Positions 17,046 through 62,905 of a stretch of 64,000 nt of DNA are shown one piece after another. Every line of letters begins with the position of its first letter. Positions within the stretch are counted from its first letter, which is position 1. The notes beneath the pieces were generated by a model, which made no database searches, was not told the origin of the DNA, and was given only the letters and a program-made list of their open reading frames with translations. Made by a program: the position numbers and the translations under genes. Source of the DNA: a virus; the IMG/VR virus record IMGVR_UViG_3300042892_002669, positions 13,106 to 77,105 of that record; one strand, given 5' to 3'.

Positions 17046-20000
17046 TTATACGCCTATCGGATTAGGTCCGCCTGTGGGCACACTAGTCATAGTTATCTTA
17101 AATTTAGCACCGGTTGAGTTGTTTATGATGTACAACCCGTCACTACCTGGCATCATGGTCCAAGTGTTAGCTTCATTCTTCATGGTAACATCACTGACAT
17201 ACAAGTTCTTCCAATGCAGATCAAGAGTTGGAACAACAGCAAGTATCAAGTCATTTACACCATCTGTGCCGTTCAATGCACTACCAAAAATAGTAACTGT
17301 GTCATTAAATGTTAGAGTTGAGCCAGATGAAGTTGTACTATCAGCCGCAGCCGTTAGGGTTAAAGTGTTAGTTAAACTGTCAATAGTTACTACTCGTTGT
17401 CCAGAAGTAAATCCAGCGCCAGTTACTGCCATTTGTTGTGTAATACCCGAAATGTCATTCACCACAAGTGATATGCCTGTTGTGTTGACAAAAGTTTTAT
17501 TTATGGAAGCGTATCCCGAACCTAATGCATTAATCCTAACTTTATACACCTGTCCGCCCACGCTAGCCGGAGTTGTATATACTTCAAATGATGCGTCCGC
17601 GCCCGACCCACTGGTAGCTACCAGTGGGTTCAACTCACCAGTGGGAGAAGATTGTGACACTATCCATGATTCGGCGAAAGTTTTAGCCGCGGCCGGGGTA
17701 CCGGAGATAATATCTAATGAAGCGATTGATCCAGCTTTGGCACCTAAATTTTGTGAGGCTGTAGTACCAGGCACAACACTACCAACTGCATCAACTGTTG
17801 TTGTTTGATATCCACCATTCCAAATAGTTACTTTATTATCCTTATCATTTACTCCTAATCCACTGCCTTCCATATATGGATATGCAATAAAATCTGCATT
17901 TGTATCAGATAGCATAGTGAATCCATTGGTCAATGACGTAAAATAGATACCATGTGTGGCACCGTGATAGCCAGTAATTGATACTAAATCAGGATCCCAA
18001 ATTAAACTAGTATTATCGCCAGGGATTGTGTACTGTCCATCCTTGTGTACAGTTAGTCCAAGTAGTGACCCAACACTGGTGATAGCAGGCTGTGCTGCTG
18101 TTGTCACTGTGCCAGCAGTAGTTGCAGTAGTGGCTGAACCAGCAGTAGTTGCGCTGGTAGCAGTTGCTACAGTGCCCACTACATTTGAAGCATTCAAGTT
18201 GGTTAAGGCGGCGCCGTTGCCTGAGAATAAATTGGCAGTTAATCGACCGGTGGTTTTGGCATATGTTAGCTGCGAATCACCACCAAAGGCTCCTGCATCA
18301 TTAAATTGTACCTGTTGCGATGCGCCGCCTGGATTCACATCAGGTTGAGCTACCCAACTTAGTATTCCAGTGCCATCTGTTTGTATCACATACCCTGCAG
18401 TACCGCCGGTGATGGTTACGTTGGACAATGGTCCCAGATTAGCCAGTCTGGTTACTATCAGATTGCCATTGGATGTCAGATTGCCGTCTACTCTTAGTTC
18501 GGTCAATATGCCCACACTTGTTATACTGGACTGCGCACTGGCAGTGACTGTGCCTGCTGTAGTTGCGCTGGTGGCGCTGGCTACTGTGCCTGTTACATTG
18601 GCTGCTGGAATACTGGTCAAGCCAGCAGCGGAACCGTAGAATGCAGTGGCTGTTAATCTGCCAGTGGTTTTATCAAAGGTCAATGCTGAGCTTGTGTTGG
18701 ACACACCACTATCATTGAATTGAACTTGTTTATCTGAGCCTGGTGCTGATTTAGGATTCTGCCACGACAACACACCTAAGCCGTCAGTGGATAACATATA
18801 ACCAGATGTTCCACCTGTGATGGTGACATTGGCCACTGCGCCTAAATTGGCAGTGCTGGTTGCTATTATATTTCCACTTACATTACCAATGAAGTTGCCT
18901 GCACGAACATTGCCCAGAGTATTGAATGTTACAACGTCACTTGCTACACTTACGTTACTGCCAAATACAAATTCTCCAGCATTGTTATCCCAACCCATGA
19001 ATGCATCAACTGGCTCAGTGGTAAAATAATGTAATAGCTGACCTCTGTCTTTACCATCATTGCTTTCTAATACACCTGTTGTATTTCCGCCTTGCTCTAT
19101 AATTGGATCTTTAACAACCATGGTTTCCACATTGGCAGTGATAGTAACACCACTAACTGTTAGGTTGCCGCTGATTGTGGCATCGCCTGCTGCTAAAGTG
19201 CCAACAGTTGATAAGTTGCCTGCTGTTGCTGTGCCAGTAACTGACAAGCTGGTTAATGTACCAACACTTGTAATGTTAGGTTGTGCTGGCGTTGTTACAG
19301 TTCCTGCGGTAGTTGCAGTACCTGCAGTGGTCGCGCTGGTTGCTGCTCCGCTTAGTGCGCCTACAAATGTGGTAGCTATTATCGCGCCATTGGCTAAGTT
19401 GGCCGAAAAACTGGCATTAGACAAGTGTGCGTAGTTACCAGTGGTAGTATCACTGATAAAAGGAATATATGCTGTGCCAGTGTTGGTCAATGTGGTTAAT
19501 AGTGCTGCTGCATTGGTTGCATTGGCAACTGCACCACTTACGTTGGCGCCTGTTACTGCATTGGCTGTGGTTGCATATGTAGCCAAGCCAACCGCACCTG
19601 AAACATTAGAACCTGTTACTGCGTTGGCAGTGGCTGCGAATGTAACTTCACCTGTAACGTTAGCGCCTGCTATTGAAGTTAGCCCTACCCCGTTTGCGAT
19701 AATATAATCTACGCTTAATGTTTTGGTTGAATTATTATAAGTTAATCCTGAGCTGCCGGCAAAACTACCAGCACTATTAAATTGAACTTGGGTATCGTCG
19801 CCACCTGGGGTAGTTTCTGAACCACCCGAACCTGCTGATTGTACTACCCAACTTAAATTACCGCTACCATCCGTTCTCAGTACATATCCAGCAGTACCAC
19901 CAAGTATTCTAACATTGCTCACTGCACCCAGACTTATATTTGCACCTGAAAGAGATACATTGCCTATGCTTGTTAAACTGGTCAGTGTACCAACACTTGT

Positions 20001-21947
20001 GATATTTGGTTGTGCGTTTGTATAAACCGTACCTGCGACTAGTGCATTAGCTACCTGTCCAGTAATATTGGTACCAACGATTGACTCAGCACTGCCTGCT
20101 ATAACTGCACGAACCGCATTGGCTACGAAGCCGGTTACGTTAGCACCTGCTACTCGGTTTGATACGTTTGCAAAACTAACAGCACCAGTTACGTTAGCAC
20201 CTGCTACTGCGTTTGCAGTTGTTGCGAAACTTACTGCGCCTGATACATTAGCACCAGCTACGCTGTTAGCCGTAGTTGCGAAAGCCACTGCACCAGTTAC
20301 GTTAGCACCTGTTATATTAGCTAGACCGGCGGCGTTTCCACTAAATGTGGAAGTCAATACGCCTGTTACTTTATCAAAAGTTAATTTATTATCGGCGCCG
20401 ATTGAACCATTGTCATTAAACTGGACTTGCGTGTTGATTCCAGACGCTACCGCAGTTCCCAGCAGTGGGGGTTGCCAAGACAGGGTACCGTCACCTGCAG
20501 TGGTCAGTACATAATTAGTGCTGCCGCCTAAAATCTTTACATTGGCAACTGGACCTAGATTAGCGACTCCATCAACGTGTAATGATGTCAGATTGCCCAC
20601 TGTAGTAATATTTGGTTGGGCAGCAGTGGTTAATACTCCAGTGAAGTAATTGGCAGCTATCAAATTGGCGGCGCTGATGTCACCGGAACTCAGTGTAACA
20701 TCACTCATGGTAACACTAGTGGCATCTGCAGTTATCTGTTGAGTACCGATAAAAATAGACTTGCCGGTGGACATGTATACGTCTTTCCAGCGTTGAGCGG
20801 GAGATCCTAGGTCATATGTTAAGTCTATGCTTGGTATCAAACTAGTGGTTACATTGCCAGTTACGTTCAAGTCTTTAACATTGGCTGTGCCAGTGGTTGT
20901 TAAGTTTCCTGCTGTCAAGTTGCCAGTTACTGTGGCAATATTGCTTATGATTACGTTATTGGCGTTAACATTGCCTGTTATGTTTGCTGTAGTGGTAGCA
21001 GTGATGCTGGTAAATGCACCGGAGTTGGCTGTAACTGCACCAATCGCACCAGAGAACGATCCCTTAAAGGTATTGGCCGCTACGTTTTTGGTAGCTGTTA
21101 TGTTTCCAGTTACTGTTAATAAGTTGGTAACTCTGTTAAATGCTAGATTACCAGTGGCAACGAATACACCAGAACCATCACTTATTTGTATTTGATTGTT
21201 GGCTCCTGCTGACGCACCGGTGCCAGCCGCAAAGAATGCAGCGGTGGCTACACCACTATCAGCTACATATGCAGTGAATGCAGTGGCGTTTACTTGTTTA
21301 GTTGGGTCATTAAAATCTATGCTGGTATATAGGGCAAATGTGTTTGATGTTAGTACTTGAGCAAAGTATTTGTTGGTTCCCAGTTCACCAGCAGTTCTGA
21401 TTTGAGTCATGCCATCAACATCAACGATAGTGACCGGAACACCGGTGCTCAATTGATTTGGTGTAACTGTGGTAACTACTGCAGGATTGGTTTGTGATAT
21501 GTCTGCAATATCATATGTTACTACCCCTGCATTGGTCCAAGTTAAGTTACCTGTACCATCAGTCTGTAGTACATAGCCATTGGTTCCACCCAGTATCTTT
21601 ACATAGTCTGATTCGCCTAAATTGATATCAACTGTGGAAGCTGGGCCACCGCCGTTTACCCAAGCATAGTCTTTTGCTACCAGTAGTTGACCATCAGTTA
21701 AATCAGATACGTTAAATGTAGTATTGGCTGCGCCATCAATTTTGGCAAAGTTTAGCAGCGAAACTTCAGTTAGTACCTCTGTTTGAGTGGTAGTTCCACC
21801 CTCAGCTGGTGGATGCAATGTTGGATCATTGCCTATATATAGTCTGCGTTCGTCTGTGGCAAAGCCAAGCTCGCCCTCAGATAATTGGGGTAAATCTACG
21901 TTAGCCCCAGTGCGGTGTTGAATCCTTGAAATCTGTATGATTGCCAT
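17046..21947 (-). CDS. Large tail fibre/virion fibre protein (1633 aa)
   Basis: N-terminal IQHRTG...LPQLSEGELGFATDERRLYIG; repeated QPNITSVG, GANVTG, QVQFND and VL.TDG.G.LSW fibre motifs. Confidence 0.8.
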   Translation of the reverse strand: MAIIQISRIQHRTGANVDLPQLSEGELGFATDERRLYIGNDPTLHPPAEGGTTTQTEVLTEVSLLNFAKIDGAANTTFNVSDLTDGQLLVAKDYAWVNGGGPASTVDINLGESDYVKILGGTNGYVLQTDGTGNLTWTNAGVVTYDIADISQTNPAVVTTVTPNQLSTGVPVTIVDVDGMTQIRTAGELGTNKYFAQVLTSNTFALYTSIDFNDPTKQVNATAFTAYVADSGVATAAFFAAGTGASAGANNQIQISDGSGVFVATGNLAFNRVTNLLTVTGNITATKNVAANTFKGSFSGAIGAVTANSGAFTSITATTTANITGNVNANNVIISNIATVTGNLTAGNLTTTGTANVKDLNVTGNVTTSLIPSIDLTYDLGSPAQRWKDVYMSTGKSIFIGTQQITADATSVTMSDVTLSSGDISAANLIAANYFTGVLTTAAQPNITTVGNLTSLHVDGVANLGPVANVKILGGSTNYVLTTAGDGTLSWQPPLLGTAVASGINTQVQFNDNGSIGADNKLTFDKVTGVLTSTFSGNAAGLANITGANVTGAVAFATTANSVAGANVSGAVSFATTANAVAGANVTGAVSFANVSNRVAGANVTGFVANAVRAVIAGSAESIVGTNITGQVANALVAGTVYTNAQPNITSVGTLTSLTSIGNVSLSGANISLGAVSNVRILGGTAGYVLRTDGSGNLSWVVQSAGSGGSETTPGGDDTQVQFNSAGSFAGSSGLTYNNSTKTLSVDYIIANGVGLTSIAGANVTGEVTFAATANAVTGSNVSGAVGLATYATTANAVTGANVSGAVANATNAAALLTTLTNTGTAYIPFISDTTTGNYAHLSNASFSANLANGAIIATTFVGALSGAATSATTAGTATTAGTVTTPAQPNITSVGTLTSLSVTGTATAGNLSTVGTLAAGDATISGNLTVSGVTITANVETMVVKDPIIEQGGNTTGVLESNDGKDRGQLLHYFTTEPVDAFMGWDNNAGEFVFGSNVSVASDVVTFNTLGNVRAGNFIGNVSGNIIATSTANLGAVANVTITGGTSGYMLSTDGLGVLSWQNPKSAPGSDKQVQFNDSGVSNTSSALTFDKTTGRLTATAFYGSAAGLTSIPAANVTGTVASATSATTAGTVTASAQSSITSVGILTELRVDGNLTSNGNLIVTRLANLGPLSNVTITGGTAGYVIQTDGTGILSWVAQPDVNPGGASQQVQFNDAGAFGGDSQLTYAKTTGRLTANLFSGNGAALTNLNASNVVGTVATATSATTAGSATTATTAGTVTTAAQPAITSVGSLLGLTVHKDGQYTIPGDNTSLIWDPDLVSITGYHGATHGIYFTSLTNGFTMLSDTNADFIAYPYMEGSGLGVNDKDNKVTIWNGGYQTTTVDAVGSVVPGTTASQNLGAKAGSIASLDIISGTPAAAKTFAESWIVSQSSPTGELNPLVATSGSGADASFEVYTTPASVGGQVYKVRINALGSGYASINKTFVNTTGISLVVNDISGITQQMAVTGAGFTSGQRVVTIDSLTNTLTLTAAADSTTSSGSTLTFNDTVTIFGSALNGTDGVNDLILAVVPTLDLHWKNLYVSDVTMKNEANTWTMMPGSDGLYIINNSTGAKFKITMTSVPTGGPNPIGV

Positions 21948-25570: not shown

Positions 25571-26737
25571 TTACCTACCAGCTAAATTTTGACGACTGAA
25601 TCCCATTCTGTCTACAAATTTTAAGTTGTTGGATACAAACCCCTCTTGTGTCTGTGTACCATCCTGTAAGTATCCCTTTATAGGACCAACTTCAGCTTGT
25701 TTTGCCAATTGATCGACTACCAGCATCTTTAGCTTGTACAATTGAACCCAAATGATGAACGCAGCCTTGACTTCGTTCTTTTTAGTGGGCAGATAAGCCA
25801 ACAACTTGGCTTTCATGGTTTCAGTGAAGGGTCTGGATTGCACAAACTGCAAAAAATCAGAACCCATGCTGTTCAAGTTTCCAGCTACGATTCTCTTGTT
25901 CACGTATACAGTAAACAGTCCAGCAAAAGCAGTTCTGGCCTGAGGAGCACTGTTGAATAAGTCATCTACCATGGGACCATAGGTTTGTATGGCCTGTTCA
26001 GCAGCTTTGGACAGTGTGGTGTTTAATTTTAGTTTGGGAGGGTTTGGCATTGCACTGGGCACAATAGCAACATTGCTGACATTTTGCAAGCTGCCTATTC
26101 CACCATTTAGTGTGACTGCATCATCGGTGCTCATTGCATCGGCTTCTATAAACTGATGCACTGCAATGCCTGCTACTTTTTTATCAAACAGCTTGCCCAA
26201 TTCACTATCTTGTTCTACTGTATAGGTAATACCATTGGGATTAGCCCTAAAGGTGTACATACCATCTTGTGCTTGCAGCGGGCTACTAAACAACAGGTCT
26301 CCCCAATAGTACCCAGGCTGCTTGGGTGTTGCTCGTTCAAGTCCGGCCCAAATAGATCCTATGATCTTGGTCAGATCCGATCTGACTACTCCACGATCTA
26401 CATCATACTTGGCAAATTGCTGCGGAGTATATATGGTTCTACCAACTCCACCAGCTTTGTTGAACATGTGCTTGTCCATGATACTGAATCTACCAGCAGA
26501 ATCTCTGCCAAATATCAGTGCAGGATATCCATCCCATTTAATAGTTACAGTTTTGGGATTTTGCACTGTGGCCAGTATTGATCTCAGTGCAGCTTGTGCA
26601 CCACTGGATCCAGCAGTAAATATCAAATCCTCTGGGTGATCCAGATGTCCTTTGGCTTCAGTGACTGGTACTGTGTTTATTTGCTCTAATTTTTCAATTA
26701 AAGATGAGATGTCTTCGCTCATATTATAATCTTGCAT
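25571..26737 (-). CDS. Conserved phage protein with a ligase-like KxDG motif
   Basis: HLDHPED, TIKWDGYPALIFG, WGDLLF, NPNGITY, EGFV, KFVDR..FSR.N. Confidence 0.65.
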   Translation of the reverse strand: MQDYNMSEDISSLIEKLEQINTVPVTEAKGHLDHPEDLIFTAGSSGAQAALRSILATVQNPKTVTIKWDGYPALIFGRDSAGRFSIMDKHMFNKAGGVGRTIYTPQQFAKYDVDRGVVRSDLTKIIGSIWAGLERATPKQPGYYWGDLLFSSPLQAQDGMYTFRANPNGITYTVEQDSELGKLFDKKVAGIAVHQFIEADAMSTDDAVTLNGGIGSLQNVSNVAIVPSAMPNPPKLKLNTTLSKAAEQAIQTYGPMVDDLFNSAPQARTAFAGLFTVYVNKRIVAGNLNSMGSDFLQFVQSRPFTETMKAKLLAYLPTKKNEVKAAFIIWVQLYKLKMLVVDQLAKQAEVGPIKGYLQDGTQTQEGFVSNNLKFVDRMGFSRQNLAGR

Positions 26738-27413
26738 CCTGTTGTTGTTTAATAGCAGCAGTCAATTTTACTAAATCAGCATCTGACAATTTAGGCAGTA
26801 AATCTGAAACTGATTTTAGCGACACTGTTCCTGCTTCTGCGGCTGGTGTTTCTTCCTTAGGAGTACTTGCTTTGATTGCTTGGAATAGCAATTCGCCAAT
26901 GTCCTTAAGTTCGGCTGTGCCACGGGTAGATTGGTAATTCTTTGCCAGCTGGTTACACAGATTCATTATGTCATAATCGTACGGTGCTATATTTACTCCG
27001 GCGGCGTACTGTTTGATAACCTTGTTCAAGTATCCTGCCAGATCAAATTGATCTGGGCTGGTTCCTGATTGCAGGATACGTTGATTTTCTGCCTTGACCG
27101 CATCATAGTTGGGATCCGTGGGGTTAATCGTCTTGCCCCCATAAACTACAGGTTGGTTGGCCGCAATAGCCTGCATATTTTTCTGTGCTACTGTATAGGC
27201 TTGCTGTTGTTTTTGTATTTTGGGCCACACAATAGCTAACATGCCGCCGATTTTTTTGGTAAATTCACCGATAAAATGACTTTTTTTCAGAGCATCTTGT
27301 GCATATGTGGCACCCTTTGAGTATCCGGCTGCTGCTCCCAAGGTGCCTATTCCAGCCTTGATCCAATCAGTGATTGCTTCATTAATTGTGCTGTCAACTT
27401 CCTGGAGTTTCAT
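26724..27413 (-). CDS. Hypothetical protein (MKLQEV...INE leader)
   Basis: 229-aa ORF in a late operon. Confidence 0.65.
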   Translation of the reverse strand: MKLQEVDSTINEAITDWIKAGIGTLGAAAGYSKGATYAQDALKKSHFIGEFTKKIGGMLAIVWPKIQKQQQAYTVAQKNMQAIAANQPVVYGGKTINPTDPNYDAVKAENQRILQSGTSPDQFDLAGYLNKVIKQYAAGVNIAPYDYDIMNLCNQLAKNYQSTRGTAELKDIGELLFQAIKASTPKEETPAAEAGTVSLKSVSDLLPKLSDADLVKLTAAIKQQQDARL

Positions 27414-42086: not shown

Positions 42087-44363
42087 CTACTTTATTAACC
42101 CAGATAGTCTGCGCATTGCAGCCAACTGGTCAGTACTCTCGTCTACACCAACCAGATCGCCTGGTTTGGCACTAAGAAAATCTCCCAATTCTTCTGCACC
42201 ACGGCCCCGTTTACCACTTTGATGTTTCCATTCAGAACCAACACGAACAATTTTATCACCGTCGTCATTTACATAAACACGACTGTCGTCCGTGTAGTAC
42301 CCAAAAGAATTTAGGGTCGATATCAGAGTATCTTTTGACTCAGAGCCTTCCGACACACCTTGCTCTTTATTTGCTAACTGGTCTAACTTGTCATAGCGGT
42401 CAAAATGCTTCTTGGAAGTTTTGGTATCGCCCTTCATACTGGCATCTTGTGACTTGGCAATTTCTTGTCCAGCACGACTTTTAACATCTTGACCTGTAGC
42501 CAAACGCTTGATATCTTTTCCCAAGCCCTCCGCCACACCTTGCTCTACTGGTCGTTTGAAATTTGGACGAGGTGCTTTACCACTCAGAAACTTCCCAACA
42601 TCGGACCAATGACCCACTACTTGGCCTTGTTTGTTTAGTGCTACGATTTTATCATCTTTTTTCGTAATAGTATATCCACTACTTTTAGCCTGATCTTTCC
42701 AATCATACCAACTTGTAAACTTATCAGATTCATTCAATGAGCCTTCCGCTACACCTTTTGTGACCCGAGCAACACCTACCTGCTGATCTTTTGGCTCAAT
42801 TGGCTGTTGACCTTGTTCTTGTTCCTTGCGCTTTTTTGCAGCCAGGTCTGCCACGCTACCTTTGCGAGGCTTTTTTGCACCGTAACTGAATGGACCAGCC
42901 TCCGCCACACCTTCTTTGGGTTCCTGTCTGTCGTACTGACGTTGAGCGCGAGCCTGACTATCATCGGGAAATTGATGGGGTTTCTTGGGTGATTGGTATT
43001 GGTCACCGCGAATGCCTTTGTACACACGCTCACCAGTTTCAGGATCATCCTCGTAGTGATGACGTTCACCTGGACGTAAACTCTCTGCCACTTCTGGAGT
43101 CATGGGTCTTTCAATCTTGTCTATCACACTGTGCATGCGATGGTCATCCGATTGTTCCATCCAATTGATAATGGTTTCAACTGCATCTGCATCAGGATCT
43201 TGCTCTGACAATTCTTCCAGTAGGCCGTTCAACTGATCATCTTCCAAGTTTACCGAAGCCAACATTGCTTTTGCATTCATTGCATTTGGCCCAACCACAA
43301 TCTCATCACTCAACATGCCTGCCAAATCATCCAACTGAGGCATACTCTTGGGTGCTAATCTTTCACTGACCAATTGATCGGCCCACTCTGACAATTCAGA
43401 TATTTCAGCCACTTCATTCATAGAATTGCGACCTCGGCTGATCTTGGACAATATGGGCATGGCGCTTTCTATTCTTGGATCCAATGTGGCGTTCATAAAC
43501 ATCTCACTGAGATCCGCACCAGCTGCGTCTTCTATTAGAGTGGGTGACCAATTGTCAAAATGTTCATTGTAGCCACGCTTGCCTGCCATTTTGCGCAATG
43601 ACTCACGCAACTGCAGATAGTGTTCAGTGCCTTCTGTGACCAATTGTTGTGTGCTTTCATTGAACTGACCATTTTTAGTGGCTCTGACAAAGCCTGCCAT
43701 TTTGGTATAGTCTTCGCACATCTCTCGGATATGATTCCAACGCTCGTCGTTTGGTAATCCACCTTCAGCTATGTGTCTGGCGAAAGGTCTGGCCAATCCA
43801 GGTTTGGTAGTTGGTGCCAGTACTCGTTCACCCAATGAGTTCTCAATAAAGATTTGAGCAATGTTTCTGTAGCGTTGCTCACCTTCTTCTATTTTGCGGG
43901 TGTGCTTGATCACCATCTTTACTGTGGGAACTGCATCGCTGTAGCTGCCTGACTTGCCCATGGGGTAGTAACCCTCATCCAGTTTTTTTGTGTTTTCTCT
44001 TTTTGCCATATCGTATTTTAAATTGTCAATATCACTTAATTCAAATTTGCTTACTTTACCAAATGTCAGTTTGCGCAATCTGGCAGTTAGTTCGTGGAAA
44101 CTGAGCATGCCATCATCAGTTGAACCAGCTGGACTCCCAGCAACGTCATCCCCAAAGTACAGTGTAAGTTCACCAGTGCCGTCGATTCCTATAGTGATAG
44201 TTCCATAGTTTTCTCCGTCTTTGATAAAGTTAAACTGAAACACATCGGCGTCATCGGTTATAGCCATTTCTTTGCCCGACGAATCCAGCATGGTTGGCTT
44301 GTATCCGTTGGTCTTCAAGAACTTGAACACTGTGGCTTTTACTGAGTTTTGGTTAATTGGCAT
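42087..44363 (-). CDS. Probable head-associated (poly)protein with a C-terminal GVAEG-delimited cassette array
   Basis: 758 aa; late promoter at 44386-44393; many [LIV]xE sites; four GV(A/S)E(G/A) repeats; ends MRRLSGLIK. Confidence 0.75.
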   Translation of the reverse strand: MPINQNSVKATVFKFLKTNGYKPTMLDSSGKEMAITDDADVFQFNFIKDGENYGTITIGIDGTGELTLYFGDDVAGSPAGSTDDGMLSFHELTARLRKLTFGKVSKFELSDIDNLKYDMAKRENTKKLDEGYYPMGKSGSYSDAVPTVKMVIKHTRKIEEGEQRYRNIAQIFIENSLGERVLAPTTKPGLARPFARHIAEGGLPNDERWNHIREMCEDYTKMAGFVRATKNGQFNESTQQLVTEGTEHYLQLRESLRKMAGKRGYNEHFDNWSPTLIEDAAGADLSEMFMNATLDPRIESAMPILSKISRGRNSMNEVAEISELSEWADQLVSERLAPKSMPQLDDLAGMLSDEIVVGPNAMNAKAMLASVNLEDDQLNGLLEELSEQDPDADAVETIINWMEQSDDHRMHSVIDKIERPMTPEVAESLRPGERHHYEDDPETGERVYKGIRGDQYQSPKKPHQFPDDSQARAQRQYDRQEPKEGVAEAGPFSYGAKKPRKGSVADLAAKKRKEQEQGQQPIEPKDQQVGVARVTKGVAEGSLNESDKFTSWYDWKDQAKSSGYTITKKDDKIVALNKQGQVVGHWSDVGKFLSGKAPRPNFKRPVEQGVAEGLGKDIKRLATGQDVKSRAGQEIAKSQDASMKGDTKTSKKHFDRYDKLDQLANKEQGVSEGSESKDTLISTLNSFGYYTDDSRVYVNDDGDKIVRVGSEWKHQSGKRGRGAEELGDFLSAKPGDLVGVDESTDQLAAMRRLSGLIK
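42347..42913 (-). repeat. Four in-frame 15-bp direct repeats AAGGTGT(G/A)(G/T)CGGA(A/G)G separating unrelated cassettes
   Basis: Cores at 42347-42361, 42527-42541, 42743-42757 and 42899-42913; periods 180, 216 and 156 bp. Confidence 0.85.
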
Positions 44364-44391: not shown

Positions 44392-45945
44392 TCAACTCAT
44401 CACTGCATAGAAGGGCAGCGGGGGCAGGAATTCGTCATAATCTCTGATTTGAGTCTCCAATTCCATGTGAAAGCTGCCCAATTCTTGTATCATTCTGACT
44501 ATCAGTAGCGTAGACATGACCAAATCATCAGTTTCTCCCGATTTTGCTGCATAACTGCCACCATGGGCCACAAAAGTCTTGAGTTCACTTATCAGACTGC
44601 GGCTGTTTATCTTCATCTTCTTGGATTCTATCAACTGCTTTAGCTTGGCGCATGCTGCCAGTTTACTCTTGTTGGTGGTGTTAAATCCCTTGCGTTTTTT
44701 AACTCCAGACTCCGTTAGCATGGTGCCAGGTATGTTGTGCTCACCATATTCATGCAGCGACACATTGGCAGCTTCGCCTATACTATTGTTTTCCAAACTG
44801 TAATAGATATTGTTTGGTTCGCCCGTACATTCAACTATGTACTTGATAATCTGCGTGATCAATTTAACTTGCTCGGGGATCGCGGTTTTGTTGTGCTTCC
44901 ATTCACCAATCTGGGTAGTGGAGTTTGCTTCAAATATTTGTATAGCCGCTGGATCGCCACCAGTGCCCAAACTTGGATCCAGTCCAATAACATAAATGTT
45001 GCCTTTGGTTGGTTGCTTGTACCAACGAATTTGTCCCTGTCTGGTAGTGGGTTCAACTCCTTCAAGTTCAAACAGTGCATTGGCATTGATCAGTGTTTCA
45101 TCTGCAATGATAAATTCAATTTCCATTTCACGACGGAATCTGTCATCACCCAACTGTGCTCGCATACTGGTAGCCCAGGCTTCATCACGTTCAGGATGTG
45201 ATCTCCAAGTGGCTTTGTACGCACGGAATCCATTGATGCCCAATTCTGTTTCGTTGCCATACTCATCTTCACATTTGTTTGCACCTTTCCAAATCAGTGC
45301 AAATTGATCTTCGTCACTGTTTGGTGTGCTGGTTATAATTGCTTTACCACCAGTTGATAGTGTTGGAGTAATGGATGTCCAGAACTCTTTGGCTATGGTT
45401 GGTCTTACGAATGCAAACTCGTCCAAGTACAGTAGTGAGATAGATAGACCACGACCTGTGTTTTCAGTTGTAGTTGCGCTTATGATACGACTGCCGTTGT
45501 CAAAGTCTATGTTACCCTTGTTGTAGGTGACCGCCCCTGCTTTAATATGATGAGGACAATTCTCATATGCATATCTTACACGAGACATGATTTCTTGTGC
45601 GCCTGCATATTTGTGCGCTGCAATCAGTATAGTAGTATCAGGTACAAACATAGCGTACCACAAGAGGTAACCTGCGGCACTGGTTGATTTACCTGTTTGT
45701 CGTGCCATCAAGCTGATACTGAATCGGTAATTATGATAAGTGTGTATCAGTTCTTTTTGGAAATCCCATGGATGATAGAGCAAACTGCCGCGAGTTGGAT
45801 GCTGTATATAGAAGAAATTGTCCATGAAGTAGAGATATCCCATGATGGGATCACTACATTTTACGAAATCGTCCAGTTGCTGTTGATTGGCAAACGTGGT
45901 TTTCTCGTAAGGAGTTTTTATTAACGCGGTGATATTTGTACTCAT
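44392..45945 (-). CDS. Terminase large subunit (T4 gp17-like)
   Basis: ARQTGKS, YLDEFAFV, ITSTPN, GLDPSLG.GGD, ENN.IG, DDLVMS. Confidence 0.95.
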   Translation of the reverse strand: MSTNITALIKTPYEKTTFANQQQLDDFVKCSDPIMGYLYFMDNFFYIQHPTRGSLLYHPWDFQKELIHTYHNYRFSISLMARQTGKSTSAAGYLLWYAMFVPDTTILIAAHKYAGAQEIMSRVRYAYENCPHHIKAGAVTYNKGNIDFDNGSRIISATTTENTGRGLSISLLYLDEFAFVRPTIAKEFWTSITPTLSTGGKAIITSTPNSDEDQFALIWKGANKCEDEYGNETELGINGFRAYKATWRSHPERDEAWATSMRAQLGDDRFRREMEIEFIIADETLINANALFELEGVEPTTRQGQIRWYKQPTKGNIYVIGLDPSLGTGGDPAAIQIFEANSTTQIGEWKHNKTAIPEQVKLITQIIKYIVECTGEPNNIYYSLENNSIGEAANVSLHEYGEHNIPGTMLTESGVKKRKGFNTTNKSKLAACAKLKQLIESKKMKINSRSLISELKTFVAHGGSYAAKSGETDDLVMSTLLIVRMIQELGSFHMELETQIRDYDEFLPPLPFYAVMS

Positions 45946-48036: not shown

Positions 48037-48654
48037 TTATAGTTCTCTCTTTTTACAGTTATCAAAATGCCATCGTTGCATTACCCCAGAGCCACCTAAG
48101 GTATTACAATGAGGACATACTATTTTGGGTTTTGGTTTACCTGCATTTGCTTCGCTATTTTTCCTTTTCCATTCATCTGATTGTACTTTTCCGAAGTTGG
48201 GATTATTAACACCAGTGCGAAGTTTATTTTTTGCGGAAAGGTCAGGTCGGGCGATTCCGCGTTTTTTGTTTGCTCTTTTATTTTTGTGTTCTGACGATTG
48301 TGGACCATATGGGGGTCTTTTCCCTCGCATTTTGTCTAATGATTTTTCAGTGTGTTTTTCTCCCAAACGACATGGTCTATTATCATTGTTGTGTTGGTTG
48401 AAACTTCGTGGGTCATTTTTAGCGTCAAGAAGCTGTAGAATTTCTGTTTCTAACTGATAGATGTCTTTAGATTCACCCTCACAAATTATTTGACGAGACC
48501 ACTCAGTGGGATTGGACAGTATAAGAGGTTTTACTTTTTTACTACTGCATAAGTAGCCATCATTTGGGTGGCAACCAATAGCATACCGTGAGCCAATATA
48601 CCAGCTGAGCGTTGGGAGGTGCGTCCATTTGTAAACATAAGCAATCGTTTTCAC
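48037..48654 (-). mobile_element. Free-standing GIY-YIG-like (Seg-type) homing endonuclease gene with NUMOD3-like repeats
   Basis: YVYKW...WYIGSR...GYLCSS; basic HTEKS/SEHK/SDEWK repeats; NPNFGK; CPHC...RWHFDNC tail. Confidence 0.7.
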
Positions 48655-48686: not shown

Positions 48687-49058
48687 TTATTTTCCAAATC
48701 CCTTAAAGGCCATCATGGGACTTGACTTGTTGGTACTGTCCAATTCCTCACTCTTTAGATCACCTTTGTTAAGGTCTTGGTAATCGGCGCCTGCCGCTTT
48801 GTAAGCCTGCTTGAGCATTTTTTGCTCTACATCAGTGTATGGATGAGCCGTTCTTTGCTTACCCACCCAGCTGGTTGAGTTGATGTCTATAGGATTGGTT
48901 CCATCTGCACAAGCCGCTGCCATCATCACACGATTAAGTGTGTAATCACTGTTTGCTTGTTCCTTATCGTGAAACAAATTAAGACCTTTTGTGGCCTTTT
49001 GTTGGCGTTTGGTAATCTTACCTTTTTTGGCTTCGCCTATGAATTCTTTTGCTCTCAT
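48687..49058 (-). CDS. Hypothetical protein with a T4 CTS-like leader (MRAKEFIGE)
   Basis: 123-aa basic protein; CTAAATA 5 nt before the ATG. Confidence 0.7.
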   Translation of the reverse strand: MRAKEFIGEAKKGKITKRQQKATKGLNLFHDKEQANSDYTLNRVMMAAACADGTNPIDINSTSWVGKQRTAHPYTDVEQKMLKQAYKAAGADYQDLNKGDLKSEELDSTNKSSPMMAFKGFGK

Positions 49059-54450: not shown

Positions 54451-55740
54451 TTAACTCCGTGATTTATGATCGTTATAAATTGCAAAAGTACCAAATGGGG
54501 GATTTGGATCTGGATCGCCATGAATCACCCATGTGGTGTCGCAGTAGTTACTGTCTCCCCAACTACCACAGGGGTAACCATCAGTGAACACAATCAGTCG
54601 TTTGGGTTCAATTGCTTCACTTTTCAAGTACTCAAAGATACTGTCAAAGTCAGTGCCGCCACCGCCTTGTAATTCATATTCATCAACAGTGTCCATGTTC
54701 TCGCTGGTGAAGTCTTGTGGATTGTACACTTCAGTGTCAAAACAAAACACGTGTAATTTATATCCATCAAACGCATCCATCATGCCTGCAACTTCAGCCA
54801 AGAATGCCTGACCCTGTTTAGTACTGATACTGCCTGACATATCAATGGCAATGGTTACATCAATTTCTTCACCCGGTGTCATGCCTGGCATGACTGCATC
54901 CATGTGCCAACCCTTACGATTGGGACGAGTCCAACTGTAGTCATTGCGAATTGCACTGGTCAAGTTAGATTGAATCAGTTCACGCCAGGGCATGACTGGA
55001 TTAGTAGCATGCTTGATCAGACGCTCCACACCTTTGGGAATAGTGCCACCTTCAGCACTCTGTGCAGCAGCCAAGATAGCCTGTTTCATTTCTTGACGAA
55101 CTTGCTCACGTTCCTCTTTTGACATTTTAGGACGCTTGCCTCTGCCCTCACCTTCTTCACCTTCGCCATCTCCATCACCGTCATCACCATCAATGTGATC
55201 ATCCAGCATTTTGTCAACCAAATCATCCAAACTGATCTTGTCAGCCTTGTCGTACAGATCATCATAGATGGCCTCAGCACTCATGCCATCGTATTTTGTT
55301 TCATACAAACAGGGCACTGTGGTAATAAACTCACCAACTTTGTGACGTTTCAAATCAGCATTAACTGCATAGTCATCTGCCACATTCCACAATTGTGGAT
55401 CACGTGTACCGCGTCTGCCCATGTGATCGTACACTACATGCAACACTTCGTGCCCAACCAAAAACTCTACTTCTTTGGGCTTGAGCATCATGATGAAACG
55501 CGAGTTATAATAGAAACGCTTGCCATCTGTGGCAGCAGTGCCGCACCATTCATCAGCATTGATCAATTGCAAACGTGTAGCAAGATTTCCAAAAAAACTG
55601 TGACGTAGCAGCAAGCCAATACGTGCAGTTACTAACCGTTCTCTGGCCAAATGGTCAACTTTGGCGTCAGTTGGTCCAATTAGATTTTCATATTTCTTGC
55701 TGCGTTTTTTCTTCTTAGCGGGTGCGATTACTGCGCTCAT
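54451..55740 (-). CDS. HEXXH metallopeptidase-like plus VWA domain protein (DUF2201-like)
   Basis: TAATDG, HEVLH...H..R, WN.A.D...N; MIDAS DMSGS, FDT, GGGGTDF, FTDG. Confidence 0.88.
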   Translation of the reverse strand: MSAVIAPAKKKKRSKKYENLIGPTDAKVDHLARERLVTARIGLLLRHSFFGNLATRLQLINADEWCGTAATDGKRFYYNSRFIMMLKPKEVEFLVGHEVLHVVYDHMGRRGTRDPQLWNVADDYAVNADLKRHKVGEFITTVPCLYETKYDGMSAEAIYDDLYDKADKISLDDLVDKMLDDHIDGDDGDGDGEGEEGEGRGKRPKMSKEEREQVRQEMKQAILAAAQSAEGGTIPKGVERLIKHATNPVMPWRELIQSNLTSAIRNDYSWTRPNRKGWHMDAVMPGMTPGEEIDVTIAIDMSGSISTKQGQAFLAEVAGMMDAFDGYKLHVFCFDTEVYNPQDFTSENMDTVDEYELQGGGGTDFDSIFEYLKSEAIEPKRLIVFTDGYPCGSWGDSNYCDTTWVIHGDPDPNPPFGTFAIYNDHKSRS

Positions 55741-58003: not shown

Positions 58004-61000
58004 ATGAGTTGGCCACAAAACCCCACAAACGGACAGCAAGTACAGATCAATGGATTTATATACGCATTCAACACCAGCAATAATACCTGGGATAGACTGG
58101 GAGGATTTGGTGTAAACCCCGTTACTGAATCGGTAGTGTCAGATGTTATACAAGCCAAAGACCTTACGGTCACCCGATCTGCTGATTTGGGCAGTGTAAC
58201 TGACATAACTATAGCAGGCGGCACCAGTGGATACGTGATGACCACCGACGGTACAGGCAATTTAACTTGGGAGCCGCAACTTACTGTTACTCCTGCTGGC
58301 AACGTCAATGAAGTACAATTTAACAGTGGCGTATTTGACGGCAGCGAAAAATTAACATTTGATCCCATTACTGGTACATTGACTACCATCAACATCGCCG
58401 GTAACTTAACAACCGCAGCTCAAACAAATATTACCAGTGTTGGTGCACTCACCAGCTTGGCAGTCAGCGGTGATATCAATGCGGGCAATGTGATTGCCAC
58501 TAACTTTGTGGGTAACGTAACTGGTATATTGTCTGCTCCTGGTGCGAACACACAAGTGCTATTTAATAACCAGGGCAACGTGGGCGCCAGCACCAACTTG
58601 ACATTCGACGGTACCCTGTTGAATGTAACCGGTAACATAGGGGCGACCAAAGTAACTGCCACTACGCTGGGAGGCACTCTTGCCACCGCCCTTCAAACCA
58701 ATATAACACAGGTGGGCACACTCACTGGACTAACTGCAACTGGTGATATAACCGCTCCTAAATTTTTAGGCAATGTAGTAGGTGGAACCATCAAGGGCAG
58801 TTTGGAGGCGCCAGGTGGTGCTCCCAATGACGGGCAGATAACCTATAATGATCAGGGAACCATATCATCCAGCAGTGCTCTTACCTTTGTTAACGGTGTA
58901 CTCGCAGTTACTGGCAACCTGTCATCAGGCAATGCCAATTTGGGCAATTTAACTAAATCCAATTTCTTCACAGGCGTGTTGACAGCCGCGGCAGCAGAAC
59001 AACCCAACATAACCAGTGTTGGTACATTAACCAGTCTTGCAGTCACAGGTAACATCTCGTCAGGCAATGCCAATCTGGGCAATTTAACTAAATCCAATTT
59101 CTTCACAGGCGTGTTGACCAGCGTTGCCAGTGCTCAGCCCAACATTACCAGTGTGGGTTCATTGACAAGTTTAACTGTCATTGGTAATATCACACCAGGA
59201 AACATCGACACTACTGGTAGTATAACCGGCGTGGATGTGACCTATACCACATTAAATGCGCCAGCCACCACTGCAGCCAATGCAGTGATATATAAAAACA
59301 CCAGTGGTAGATTAGTGGGCAGTGCCAGTTTAACATATGACGGCAGCATGTTGACTGCTACAGGCAATATCGCTGCAGGCAATATCGACGGTGGCAACTT
59401 AACAAAATCCAACTTCCTGCAGGGTGTACTCACTGCCACATCAAGTGCGCAGCCCAATATTACCAGTGTTGGTCAATTGACTGGACTAACTGTAGTCGGG
59501 GAAATCACTGCTACCACAGTCAGTGGAAAACTTGTTGCAGCGGGCAGTACCAATGAGCTATTGTTTAACAAAGAAGGCATAGTCAATGCATCAAGCAATC
59601 TAAGCTTCAATGATACACTATTAACCCCACTACTGGCTGTTATTGGAAATATTGAATCAGGCAATGCCAATTTGGGCAATCTGGCAATTGCCAATTATGT
59701 TGCTGGTGTACTGACTACTCCCGGGCAGCCAAATATTACCAGCACAGGTACATTAACTGGGTTGACAGTAGATGGCGATATTACAATACGTAATAGTAGC
59801 ATTACAGTAGATGACAATACATTCATCACAGGTAACTTAGTGCCAGTTACAACAATTACATACGATATCGATGGCACCACTGTGCTAGAAGCCAATACTC
59901 CAACATATGACTTGGGGTCAGAACAACACAGATGGCGTGATTTGTATCTGTCCGGCAGCACCATCAAGCTGGGTATTGTATCACTAACATCATCTACTAC
60001 TGGACTTACCACTAATATAACAACTATAGCCCCTGATGGAAGTGCTAGTACTGCGCCTGCTGTTATCTCTGGGGCACAGTTGACTTCTACCACCACTGCT
60101 GCGGGGGTGGCACCTTTCGTAGTATATAGCAGTGCAATGGTTGCTAACTTGAACGTAGAGTTCTTACAGGGATACAAGCCTAACACAGCCAACCTGCCCA
60201 ACACAATTGCACTAAGAGATCAATTTAACAATTTCAGTGCAAACACCATCACTGCCAACTTGTACGGAAATGCCACTACTGCAGGCACAGTTGTTACTCC
60301 AGCGCAACCCAACATAACCAGTGTGGGCTTGCTTACCAGCTTGGATGTGCAGAACGATTTAACTGCAAACAACATCAGTGTTAGCTATGCAGTGGCTGCA
60401 GCAACCATTGAAGCTGACGGATACATGCTGGGCAACGTCACTGGTGCTAATGTTACCGGACAAGTGCCCAATGCACTGGTATCTGGCACAGTATACACAG
60501 CAGCGCAGCCTGCTATTACAAGTGTTGGTACATTAACTGGATTAGCAGTTAGTGGCGATGTGGGCGTGACCGGCAATGCCACTATTACTGGTAACTTGAC
60601 GGTAAGTGGCACTACAATCACTGCCAATGTTACAACTATTGTAATTAAAGATCCAATTATTGAGCAGGGTGGCAATCTTGCTGTTGGTGGGGTATTGACT
60701 ACGAACGACCTCAAAGACAGAGGAACAATATTACACTACTACGATAGCAATCCAGTGCTGCCGGCAGTCAGTGCAGCAAAAGATGCATTCATGGGTTGGG
60801 ATAACAGCAATGCAGAATTTGCATTTGGCAGCAATGTCAGTGTCACTGGAGAAATAGTAACCTTTAATCAATTTGGTAACATCAGAGCCAATTATTTTAT
60901 AGGTGATGGTAGTCAGTTGATAAATGTACCGCAAATATCAAGTACTGGCAGTAACGTGATAACTACGCTCAATGGTAACGTTAATATTAGCGCAGGCGAA

Positions 61001-62905
61001 AACCCCAATGTTCTAGTGGTAACTGGAACTGGTGCCAACATCACAGGCACTGCCAATATCACAGGCACTGCCAATGTGGGTAACTTGGGCACCACTGGCG
61101 CAGTAACTGCAAGTAGATTAGTCAGTACAGTGGCTATTGGTACAGCTCCATTTACTGTGACAAGTACCAGTCAAGTTGGAAATTTGTATGTTGCACGTGC
61201 TAATGTAGCTGAACTTGCGAACGTGGTTCCTTCAGCAGCAACAGGCACTTTCTATCCAATATTGGCAAGTGGCAGCACTACAGCAAATTATGCGCACACC
61301 AGTAACACGAACTTATCATTCAATGCAGCGACCGGTGCATTAACTGCAACTACATTGGTGAGTACAGTAGCACAAGGAACAGCTCCATTTACTGTGACAA
61401 GTACAACACCAGTTGCCAACTTGACATCAGCCGCCATAGCCAATGGAACCGGTAATGTAAGTATTCCAGTTAGTGGAAATGTCAACATATCTGCTGCAGG
61501 CACTGCCAATGTATTAGTAGTAGCCAGTACCAGTGTTAATGTTTCAGGAACCGTAAATGCAACACAGTTAGTGGGCAATGGTATAGGAATAACTTACATA
61601 GCCGGAGGCAACGTAACTGGTGCTGTAGCCAGTGCAACAAGCGCAACAAGTGCGACCAATGCAGCAGCTTTATTGACTACATTGACCTCAACTGGCATTG
61701 CTTACCTGCCATTTATAAGTGCTACGGCAACTGGCAACTATGCGCATCTATCCAACGCCGGGTTCTCGGCTAACTTGGCTAATGGAGCCATAATTGCCAC
61801 CACATTCGTTGGTGCTCTAAGTGGGGCAGCTACTAGTGCAACTACTGCCGGCACGGTAACCACTGCAGCTCAAACAAATATTACCAGTGTTGGTACACTA
61901 ACTGCATTAGGTGTCACTGGCGCAGTAACTGCAAGTAGATTAGTCAGTACAGTAGCTACTGGCACTGCCCCGTTTACCGTGGCAAGTACTACTCAAGTAG
62001 CTAACTTGGCAGCAGCTACTGCAGGCAGTGCGACCAATGCAGGTACTGTAACGACTGCAGCACAACCCAATATTACAAGTGTTGGTACATTAATTTCTCT
62101 GACTAGTACTGGCACCGCATCCGTAAGTAGATTAATCAGTACAGTGGCTGATGGCACTGCCCCGTTTATAGTAACAAGTACTACACGAGTTGCCAACTTG
62201 GAAGCAGATACAGCAGGTAGTGCGACCAATGCAGGCACAGTAACTGCCGCAGCACAACCCAATATTACAAGTGTTGGTACATTAATTTCTCTGACTAGTA
62301 CTGGCACCGCATCAGTAAGTAGATTAATCAGTACAGTGGCCACTGGTACAGCTCCGTTTATAGTAACAAGTACTACACCAGTAGCCAACTTGGAAGTAGA
62401 TAAGGCAGGAACAGTAACCACAGCAGCGCAGCCTGCTATTACTAGCGTTGGTTCACTCACTGGATTAACTGTTACTGGTAATGCTATTTTCAGTGGCGGA
62501 TATACTTCAGTTAAATCTTTACTGGAGGCGGCTACGATTACGGCGACGGCGCCCACAACCACCACAGCGTTTGATGTACTGACGCAGGGTGTTCGGTATT
62601 ATACTTCCGCTACCACCACTGCATTTACTCTTAATGTTAGGGGGAGTAGCTCAGTGTCTCTTAACACTATGTTAAGCACAAGTCAGTCCGTATCAATTGG
62701 CTTGCTGGTTAATTGTAGCGCAACCACACATTATATGAGCGCAGTGCAGATTGACGGAGCAACTATAACTCCTAAATGGCAAGGAGGCACTGCACCAACT
62801 GCAGGTTCAGGATCAGGCGCAATTGATGTGTACACTCTGACCATTATTAAAACTGCGGCAACACCAACCTACACAGTGCTAGCGTCAACCACTAAATTTG
62901 CTTAA
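58004..62905 (+). CDS. Large tail fibre/virion fibre protein (1633 aa), paralogue of 17046-21947
   Basis: MSWP.NPTNGQ N-terminus; many QPNITSVG repeats; C-terminal KW.GGTAPT...DVYT..IIKT domain. Confidence 0.82.
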   Translation: MSWPQNPTNGQQVQINGFIYAFNTSNNTWDRLGGFGVNPVTESVVSDVIQAKDLTVTRSADLGSVTDITIAGGTSGYVMTTDGTGNLTWEPQLTVTPAGNVNEVQFNSGVFDGSEKLTFDPITGTLTTINIAGNLTTAAQTNITSVGALTSLAVSGDINAGNVIATNFVGNVTGILSAPGANTQVLFNNQGNVGASTNLTFDGTLLNVTGNIGATKVTATTLGGTLATALQTNITQVGTLTGLTATGDITAPKFLGNVVGGTIKGSLEAPGGAPNDGQITYNDQGTISSSSALTFVNGVLAVTGNLSSGNANLGNLTKSNFFTGVLTAAAAEQPNITSVGTLTSLAVTGNISSGNANLGNLTKSNFFTGVLTSVASAQPNITSVGSLTSLTVIGNITPGNIDTTGSITGVDVTYTTLNAPATTAANAVIYKNTSGRLVGSASLTYDGSMLTATGNIAAGNIDGGNLTKSNFLQGVLTATSSAQPNITSVGQLTGLTVVGEITATTVSGKLVAAGSTNELLFNKEGIVNASSNLSFNDTLLTPLLAVIGNIESGNANLGNLAIANYVAGVLTTPGQPNITSTGTLTGLTVDGDITIRNSSITVDDNTFITGNLVPVTTITYDIDGTTVLEANTPTYDLGSEQHRWRDLYLSGSTIKLGIVSLTSSTTGLTTNITTIAPDGSASTAPAVISGAQLTSTTTAAGVAPFVVYSSAMVANLNVEFLQGYKPNTANLPNTIALRDQFNNFSANTITANLYGNATTAGTVVTPAQPNITSVGLLTSLDVQNDLTANNISVSYAVAAATIEADGYMLGNVTGANVTGQVPNALVSGTVYTAAQPAITSVGTLTGLAVSGDVGVTGNATITGNLTVSGTTITANVTTIVIKDPIIEQGGNLAVGGVLTTNDLKDRGTILHYYDSNPVLPAVSAAKDAFMGWDNSNAEFAFGSNVSVTGEIVTFNQFGNIRANYFIGDGSQLINVPQISSTGSNVITTLNGNVNISAGENPNVLVVTGTGANITGTANITGTANVGNLGTTGAVTASRLVSTVAIGTAPFTVTSTSQVGNLYVARANVAELANVVPSAATGTFYPILASGSTTANYAHTSNTNLSFNAATGALTATTLVSTVAQGTAPFTVTSTTPVANLTSAAIANGTGNVSIPVSGNVNISAAGTANVLVVASTSVNVSGTVNATQLVGNGIGITYIAGGNVTGAVASATSATSATNAAALLTTLTSTGIAYLPFISATATGNYAHLSNAGFSANLANGAIIATTFVGALSGAATSATTAGTVTTAAQTNITSVGTLTALGVTGAVTASRLVSTVATGTAPFTVASTTQVANLAAATAGSATNAGTVTTAAQPNITSVGTLISLTSTGTASVSRLISTVADGTAPFIVTSTTRVANLEADTAGSATNAGTVTAAAQPNITSVGTLISLTSTGTASVSRLISTVATGTAPFIVTSTTPVANLEVDKAGTVTTAAQPAITSVGSLTGLTVTGNAIFSGGYTSVKSLLEAATITATAPTTTTAFDVLTQGVRYYTSATTTAFTLNVRGSSSVSLNTMLSTSQSVSIGLLVNCSATTHYMSAVQIDGATITPKWQGGTAPTAGSGSGAIDVYTLTIIKTAATPTYTVLASTTKFA
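58925..59118 (+). repeat. Intragenic duplication with a 135-bp (45-aa) period
   Basis: TCAGGCAATGCCAAT(T/C)TGGGCAATTTAACTAAATCCAATTTCTTCACAGGCGTGTTGAC at 58925 and 59060. Confidence 0.85.
61990..62400 (+). repeat. Near-identical intragenic tandem duplication with a 192-bp (64-aa) period
   Basis: GCAGCACAACCCAATATTACAAGTGTTGGTACATTAATTTCTCTGACTAGTACTGGCACCGCATC at 62057 and 62249. Confidence 0.88.

Follow-up and report, generated by a model that had tools for sequence, protein, structure and literature searches.

The gene that is described here is located at positions 42087-44363, on the minus strand, of a 64,000-nucleotide stretch of viral DNA (positions 13,106 to 77,105 of IMG/VR record IMGVR_UViG_3300042892_002669), to which we refer as "the window"; it encodes a protein of 758 amino acids (aa) that ends in an array of cassettes, separated by copies of a short, in-frame repeat, the junction word. 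The window is 64 kb out of a 77-kb viral contig that is rated 22% complete. The cassette gene lies directly downstream of the gene for the terminase large subunit (44392-45945), and the next genes after it encode a gp32-like single-stranded DNA-binding protein (SSB) and a UvsX-like recombinase; the contig has genes for sheath, tube and neck as well. The sequencing runs that contain the cassette gene are lake and freshwater metagenomes. Its relatives G001 (E = 1.9e-27) and G002 (E = 2.8e-30) carry a Peptidase_S77 gene, i.e. a prohead protease of the gp21 family, adjoining a Gp23-type capsid gene, which places them in a giant T4-type phage group; the source of the cassette gene is a giant T4-type freshwater phage. 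The parts of the gene are listed below, in the order in which they are translated.

42087..44363, minus strand: whole gene, 758 aa plus stop, probable carrier protein with cassette array (open reading frame, ORF; PHROG 13484)
43362..44363, minus strand: conserved N-terminal core, aa 1-334, ending in L-V-S-E (aa 331-334), from homologue alignments
42912..43361, minus strand: acidic spacer, aa 335-484 (isoelectric point, pI, 4.55 for aa 335-488), conserved in the closest subfamily only
42899..42913, minus strand: junction word copy 1, AAGGTGTGGCGGAGG, K-E-G-V-A-E-A, from pattern match
42756..42898, minus strand: cassette 1, aa 489-536, basic (pI 9.9 including the junction), predicted disordered
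42743..42757, minus strand: junction word copy 2, AAGGTGTAGCGGAAG, T-K-G-V-A-E-G, from pattern match
42542..42742, minus strand: cassette 2, aa 541-608 (68 aa), predicted small helix and three-stranded sheet
42527..42541, minus strand: junction word copy 3, AAGGTGTGGCGGAGG, E-Q-G-V-A-E-G, from pattern match
42362..42526, minus strand: cassette 3, aa 613-668 (56 aa), basic
42347..42361, minus strand: junction word copy 4, AAGGTGTGTCGGAAG, E-Q-G-V-S-E-G, from pattern match
42171..42346, minus strand: cassette 4, aa 673-731, an internal, word-flanked cassette in homologue P0002
42090..42170, minus strand: conserved C-terminal 27 aa, AKPGDLVGVDESTDQLAAMRRLSGLIK, of the GKLVG...KLSGL type, a family-wide end piece

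The four cassettes are 48-68 aa long and three of them are basic. They had been described, from the sequence alone, as unrelated to each other, and no mutual matches among them are found at E <= 1e-4; a kinship of cassettes 2 and 4 is not borne out (E = 0.63). The model of the tail (aa 480-758) is mostly disordered, with a mean predicted local distance difference test score (pLDDT) of 42, and contains secondary structure only in cassette 2 and, weakly, in cassette 4. Neither the 758-aa protein nor any of 26 homologues has a Pfam family, and the ESM Atlas has given no usable match for cassette 2; because the cassettes match no family, the suggestion that this gene delivers anti-defence effectors is speculation. 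The acidic spacer contains another V-A-E (aa 425-427). Two decayed, junction-like sequences have also been noticed, both on the minus strand: G-V-A-R (GGT GTT GCT CGG) at 42765-42776, in cassette 1, 8 nucleotides (nt) upstream of copy 2, and G-A-E-E (GGT GCA GAA GAA) at 42189-42200, in cassette 4, close to the point where P0002 has an extra word and cassettes; these may be relics of former joints.

The pattern AAGGTGTRKCGGARG has exactly four matches in the window, all on the minus strand (42347, 42527, 42743 and 42899), and zero matches in 100 dinucleotide shuffles of the window. The copies, with spacings of 180, 216 and 156 nt, share the reading frame of the 758-aa ORF and are translated as KEGVAEA (aa 485), TKGVAEG (537), EQGVAEG (609) and EQGVSEG (669). 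The preceding codons are GAA, AAA, CAA and CAA; Gly is GGT in 4/4 copies, Ala is GCG in 3/3, Ser is TCG, Val is GTG in three copies and GTA in one, and Glu is GA(A/G). In the 77-kb contig, GCG represents only 8% of the Ala codons and TCG only 4% of the Ser codons, so the copies share rare codons; with GTG at 25% of Val and GGT at 39% of Gly, the chance of the codon set of the window joints is approximately 1e-8 by simple arithmetic from the codon use of the contig. The sequence-only reading had given these same copies, spacings and codons, and had set them against two fibre genes in which identical peptides differ at silent sites; this control also holds, as the codon is the same at only 186/503 identical residues (37%) of the two 1633-aa fibre-like ORFs. 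These two paralogues are located at 17046-21947 (minus strand) and 58004-62905 (plus strand), with 508 identical residues over 1305 aligned and with randomised silent sites.

The same spelling recurs across the family. In 128 loci (1.06 Mb), we have compared 32 joints that have unrelated flanks with the background codon use: Gly is encoded by GGT in 30/32 joints (background 57%), Val by GTG in 22/26 (background 10%), Ala by GCG in 26/32 (background 7%) and the next Gly after the joint by GGC in 15/19 (background 16%), while the preceding codon ends in AA in 29/32. Searched by DNA, the 15-mer with <=2 mismatches has 43 distinct sites and its reversed control has 2; of the 43, 42 occur in the same register inside long ORFs. 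The consensus joint word is the 18-mer CAAGGTGTGGCGGAAGGC, present in at least 120 IMG/VR contigs; among the matches listed, 100 of 101 copies read QGVAEG in frame, and an independent set of 83 other joints, in ORFs that carry this 18-mer, uses GTG in 69/77 cases and GCG in 68/83. By contrast, G001 and G002 spell the V-A-E of their scaffold, of their capsid propeptide and of a small, acidic protein of the core with GTT or GTA and with GCA or GCT, differently in the two genomes; since V-A-E sites outside the joints drift silently, the codon lock is specific to cassette joints and not to the peptide as such. The conservation at the DNA level that had been proposed from four copies is thus real, family-wide and junction-specific, as seen in the three sets of joints and in the contrast with scaffold and capsid.

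The core that precedes the array belongs to a large family: more than 1,700 homologues align over approximately aa 1-333, after which their tails vary, with total lengths from 346 to ~1,600 aa. The N-terminal 345 residues match EST35_0206 of phage PA5oct (~24% identity, E = 1e-12), which was identified as a structural protein by electrospray ionisation tandem mass spectrometry (ESI-MS/MS), and PHROG 13484, "virion structural protein" (E = 2e-8); the gene probably encodes a virion carrier protein that is located inside the head. The AlphaFold model of the core has a mean pLDDT of 78 and no fold match in the PDB (Foldseek, best E = 0.044); its matches in BFVD are all uncharacterised phage proteins, one of which is named "Large polyvalent protein-associated domain". 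At the other end of the protein, the 27-aa C-terminal piece is 100% identical in P0002 and 93% identical in P0004, despite their differing cassettes, and GKLVG is present in 155 of 258 tails. In these 258 tails, GVAE is the commonest 4-mer (177 occurrences vs 3.3 expected, in 93 proteins and up to 8 per protein), the joint consensus is K-[EKQ]-[QKE]-G-V-A-E-G, and the median length of an internal cassette in the family is 68 aa. Among the matches listed, the core is present in only 4 of the 80 carrier ORFs with CAAGGTGTGGCGGAAGGC; therefore, many carriers use the joint. The cassettes of other carriers include GNAT, cytidine/dCMP deaminase and a ParB-like module.

Several other carriers are described here for their architecture. 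In a 191-kb IMG/VR contig, the homologue L046:2054-6133 (plus strand) has ~1,000 residues of cassettes inserted near core aa 115, with joints that are mostly G-M-A-E-G (GGT ATG GCG GAA GGC), but also GMEEG, and it includes cassette 3 of the window. G001 has two paralogous carriers of ~1,200 aa (C1:10846-14511, plus strand, and 175624-179157, minus strand), in which several common modules (a zinc-ribbon-like CPHCGG, KATKKQF and "LKINGKVWSK") occur in a different order, and the C-terminal parts of which look membrane-associated or Ala/Pro-rich. At the end of the G001 contig a gene-sized stretch recurs (524058-524451, part of the second ~1,200-aa carrier gene); that G001 is a simple 1.5x concatemer is ruled out, as its first 12 kb are not repeated at +347,553. 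Lastly, a ~50-aa module of the form L-G-x-Y-K-T-A-A-G ... S-G-I-[IV]-K-A-T-K-K-Q-F-x-N-D, found in L038-L042 (3329-5512, plus strand) and in L128, marks a second carrier family with the same joint, followed in L038 by P-V-A-E-A.

The comparison of homologues has revealed that their similarity to the 758-aa protein breaks at the motifs. The best example is homologue P0001 (BLASTP), which is 97% identical over aa 1-489, stops at joint 1 and resumes with 95% identity over aa 607-758, i.e. from joint 3, the two cassettes in between being replaced by a single 47-aa cassette; similarity to P0003 and P0005 also ends at copy 1 of the word, and similarity to P0002 runs to aa 613 (joint 3) and is then limited to the last 27 aa. 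Among high-scoring segment pairs with >=75% identity, 92 internal ends are located <=3 aa from the Glu of a joint vs 25 expected (maximum of 37 in 200 randomisations), and 103 internal starts are located <=4 aa from the Gly vs 24 expected, i.e. approximately four times as many as at random. Whole cassettes also recur elsewhere: cassette 2 is found at 93-98% identity in P0002, in L032/P0012, where it is joined directly to the core, in L038-L042, a different protein without the core, and in L044, another protein, beside a GNAT-like module; cassette 3 is found at 85-96% identity in P0073, P0001, L046 and P0104, the last two of which carry it within an insertion into the N-terminal part. Between phages with cores of ~55% identity, P0073 being one with such a core, cassettes 2 and 3 have 93-98% identity. 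The DNA around cassette 2 becomes homologous at AAGGTG and ceases to be so just past GGCGGARG, and the flanks on either side are unrelated. The proposals that the repeat marks the gain, loss and swapping of cassettes, and that the same cassettes would turn up at other positions and in other genes, are both supported by this comparison: the tails of the homologues appear to have exchanged cassettes with breaks at the repeat while the core was kept, instead of having an invariant, collinear C-terminus.

Natural variants of the gene have been read from the contigs of four lake runs, aligned to the gene; parts without contig cover (runs X8 and X9) are uninformative. The contig matches stop at 42343/4, 42368/9, 42524-30, 42743, 42757, 42901 and 42171, which correspond to the four copies of the word and to the start of the conserved end piece; the loose ends at 42743 and 42757 (copy 2) occur in three runs. 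One contig, X15, of 2,084 nt, corresponds to the window without cassette 2 and one word, a net difference of 216 nt that is exactly the spacing of copies 2 and 3; the word that remains is a hybrid, as its upstream (5') flank is that of copy 2 and its spelling on the 3' side is that of copy 3. In the same contig, cassette 4 is swapped for 381 other letters, with breakpoints at 42343 and 42171. X15 is a metatranscriptome contig, which places this variant in an RNA library, although contigs cannot prove transcription. Variants that diverge at all four copies, one of them by exactly one unit, are what exchange at the word would predict.

We have also compared the peptide substitutions of the joint with the specificities of prohead proteases. 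In the linker context of the tails, the Glu (P1) is kept 121:1 and P3 is Val, with 8 Met and 2 other residues, while P4 and P2 have each more than 20 substitutions; among variants that were ascertained by DNA, there are zero changes in the first two bases of the Glu codon and in the second base of the Val codon, and the changes fall at the Gly and Ala codons, together with GTG to ATG. T4 gp21 cuts after L/I-X-E (PMC9026906), and the proteases of phiKZ and SPN3US cut after S/A-X-E and A-X-E (PMC9026906, PMC10052503). The V-A-E and V-S-E of the window joints fit a rule of hydrophobic P3, any P2 and Glu at P1, and the capsid protein of the relatives has KKQLLAE|SS at the position where T4 gp23 is cut. 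It is plausible, judging from these sequences, that the joint peptide is a candidate gp21-type site that would be cut after the Glu. Cleavage at the joints is predicted to release pieces of 5.6, 8.1, 6.6 and 9.4 kDa, the first three of them basic (pI 9.3-9.9), preceded by the acidic spacer of 17.5 kDa; the predicted small, basic pieces resemble T4 internal proteins. A complex prediction of the G001 protease with a 55-aa joint segment has scored 0.00, which is evidence neither way.

The explanation that we favour, with moderate confidence, is that the joint is an exchange point, spelt by a codon-locked word, and at the same time a probable prohead-protease site in a virion carrier. According to this explanation, the core (aa 1-334) and the 27-aa C-terminal piece bracket a variable stretch, composed of the acidic spacer and the four cassettes. 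The comparison of sequences shows that cassettes are inserted, deleted and exchanged at the word and that the frame is kept each time, whether the copies involved belong to one gene, to different genes or to different phages. The exchanges may be rare crossovers at short homology, or template switches, that happen during co-infection through the general recombination machinery, UvsX and gp32 being encoded nearby. The spelling would be kept because only matching copies can exchange, so that drifted copies would freeze and be lost together with their cassettes. G-V-A-E-G, as a hydrophobic-x-Glu site, would allow the array to be cut after the Glu inside the prohead into small, mostly basic peptides, and the pieces released in relatives would include enzymes (GNAT, deaminase, ParB-like).

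Several observations weigh against this explanation. A homology of 18 nt is short for recombination of the UvsX type, the words that flank cassette 2 are not clearly more conserved across four phages than the DNA of the cassette itself, and lake contigs show variants, not the process that made them. As for the cleavage, the carrier protein has no N-terminal leader of the T4 type: its first 40 residues, which begin with MPINQNSVKATVF, contain no hydrophobic-x-E before an A, G or S, whereas other ORFs of the contig do have hydrophobic-x-E leaders. The gp21 rule leaves the flanking Gly residues and the K-x-Q preference unexplained, and no prohead protease or capsid gene is present in the 77-kb contig, at its 22% completeness.

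The strongest competitor, which we regard as unlikely, is that the joint serves recombination only: the 18-nt word would be kept for, or by, exchange, G-V-A-E-G would be a harmless flexible linker, and the protein would be uncut or cut elsewhere. All of the evidence for exchange fits this alternative equally well; moreover, the residues of the joint are small and flexible, the tail is predicted to be largely disordered, and the silent sites are as conserved as the coding ones: among the DNA-ascertained variants, the four third positions have 6 changes and the eight first and second positions have 13. What it does not account for is that the peptide variants are non-random, with the Glu all but fixed, Val or Met at P3 and freedom at P2 and P4, a pattern that matches the gp21 rule (PMC9026906), and that some joints keep the peptide despite several silent changes (GGC ATG GCC GAA GGC; GGT GTC GCA GAA).

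Two further alternatives assign the word to a specific enzyme. In the bolder one, which we find improbable, the word is the dedicated recombination signal of a self-contained system of in-frame "exon-shuffling": it would be cut or paired by a phage enzyme specific to it, giant lake phages would keep re-dealing small, head-delivered effector modules from a common pool among several of their virion genes, and the same six residues would be the protease release site. The other, to which we give slightly less credit, is that the 18-nt word is recognised by an enzyme with sequence specificity (an unknown recombinase or an endonuclease of the homing type, for instance), which would move the cassettes in place of general recombination, as an intragenic analogue of integrons or homing. 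The conservation of the word beyond its codons (the preceding AA and the following GGC), over unrelated flanks, speaks for such an enzyme, as do the many homing endonuclease genes of these phages, in the window and beside the capsid gene of the relatives. The sequence-only reading had stated that no recombinase is visible in the window, which is wrong, as the window has the UvsX-like recombinase, the gp32-like SSB and a homing endonuclease. Recombinases of the Tyr and Ser types (PF00589, PF00239) are nevertheless absent from the contig, from G001 (rated 100% complete) and from three other relatives (G002, G003 and G005) in searches that included positive controls, which makes an integron-type system unlikely; in addition, no nuclease gene consistently adjoins the carrier genes in the loci that were read, and the word has no attC-like inverted-repeat structure.

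Very improbable, in our view, is that only the peptide matters, as a cleavage or linker motif, and that identical DNA reflects recent descent with moved cassettes, with no role in recombination. Cassettes have indeed been transferred recently, as distant phages share them with 93-98% identity in amino acids and roughly 90% in DNA, and the words around cassette 2 show no clear excess of conservation over the cassette; however, the same rare-codon spelling stands beside dozens of unrelated cassettes in distant genomes, variants cease to be homologous, on both sides, at the word or within it, the indel of one unit carries a hybrid word, and other V-A-E sites of the same phages drift at silent positions. 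That the word is a translation signal, a GC-rich cluster of rare codons (GTG GCG ... GGC, with a Shine-Dalgarno-like AAGGTG) that pauses ribosomes between modules for co-translational folding, is scarcely credible: the codons are rare for these genomes and the word does sit between modules, but a pause requires rare codons and not one fixed spelling, and the breakpoints of exchange at the word would be left unexplained.

Some features of these genomes, apart from the cassette gene, are mentioned here. A homing-endonuclease-like gene is located at 48037-48654 on the minus strand (PHROG 314, E = 2e-22) and a 429-aa ORF at 54451-55740, also on the minus strand, matches PHROG 1314, "HNH endonuclease" (E = 8e-109); no evidence connects either of them with the cassette gene. 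In the relatives, GIY-YIG and HNH ORFs are located beside the capsid gene. Short leaders that end in hydrophobic-x-Glu before a small residue occur in four ORFs of the window, all on the minus strand (48687-49058, 26724-27413, 789-1412 and 25571-26737), and a similar leader occurs in a 1343-aa ORF that ends at window position 574 on the minus strand and starts beyond the window; their sequences are, in this order, MRAKEFIGE|A, MKLQEVDSTINE|A, ...RQYLTE|S, ...TVPVTE|A and MKIKNILSE|A. The MRAKEFIGE leader presumably resembles the targeting sequence of T4 internal proteins, and ORFs with such leaders may encode head-targeted proteins that are trimmed by the prohead protease.

If the favoured explanation is true, these phages have a natural form of frame-preserving module shuffling, in which one short sequence is read twice, as a DNA crossover point and as a peptide that is probably the release site of a protease. 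It could explain how giant phages diversify the cargo that they deliver to the cell while the parts of their assembly stay untouched, and it would offer a ready-made design rule for loading foreign peptides into T4-type heads, i.e. carrier core, joint, cargo and end piece. It also makes a general question testable, namely whether very short homologies can be maintained by recombination itself.

A full-text literature search has found no phage paper that mentions the joint motif; the only frequent match of QGVAE is the repeat of human alpha-synuclein (KTKQGVAEAAGK), which resembles a K-x-Q-G-V-A-E-A joint and is almost certainly a coincidence. None of the closest known systems has both an array of uniform, codon-locked joints and a movement of cassettes among several virion genes, but each of them is similar to the cassette array in part.

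In T4, the internal proteins IPI-III, Alt and the multiply cleaved core proteins gp22, gp67 and gp68 are processed by the prohead protease gp21 (PMC9026906), and head and ejection proteins of phiKZ and SPN3US are also multiply cleaved (PMC9026906, PMC10052503). The predicted pieces of the cassette array would be, like T4 internal proteins, small, mostly basic, head-internal and cut after Glu in a short motif of a hydrophobic or small residue, x and Glu; as in the T4 core proteins, for which several cuts per precursor are known, there would be more than one cut, and the relatives have genes of the gp21 and gp23 families. Unlike T4 internal proteins, the 758-aa protein and its relatives chain many unrelated modules within a single ORF and separate them by one six-residue joint, which is fixed in its DNA spelling and is also an exchange point; moreover, the 758-aa protein lacks an N-terminal targeting leader.

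Polyvalent proteins are long, virion-delivered proteins in which unrelated domains are strung together, thought to be processed into separate effectors (PMC5512222). The GNAT, deaminase and ParB-like cassettes of the other carriers fit this idea (PMC5512222), as does the name of the core homologue cited above. The paper on polyvalent proteins describes no common linker, a word that does not occur in it, and invokes built-in peptidase domains (PMC5512222), whereas the joint here is uniform and codon-locked; furthermore, the modules here are mostly tiny and family-less, and in place of two to fifteen recognisable effector or enzyme domains the 758-aa protein has no Pfam family.

In CdiA, the VENN pre-toxin motif and the orphan C-terminal modules are a case of a short motif that demarcates swappable cargo (PMC7662968); the sequence that encodes VENN is thought to supply homology for the replacement of modules, and the motif may aid proteolytic release (PMC7662968). 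The cassette array shares with CdiA/Rhs polymorphic toxins a conserved motif at the boundary of the variable part; the joint marks every boundary here. CdiA has one junction per protein, an upstream homology that is conserved over kilobases and an immunity gene, whereas arrays of ~18-nt joints are located here in phage virion genes and no immunity partner is seen. The cassette gene has no toxin family, its neighbours are the gp32-like SSB and the terminase, and its C-terminus is conserved, not variable. Integrons differ by the site-specific Tyr or Ser recombinase, of which, as above, the contig and four relatives have none.

The T-even adhesin gp38 is also from T4-type phages, with hypervariable segments that are separated by conserved glycine-rich motifs (PMC3157838); in both systems, short, conserved, Gly-containing motifs alternate with variable segments and organise plasticity. 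In gp38, a single folded domain has the glycine-rich motifs as its structural core and the variable segments as its receptor-binding loops, whereas the joints of the cassette array separate independent modules that move between different genes.

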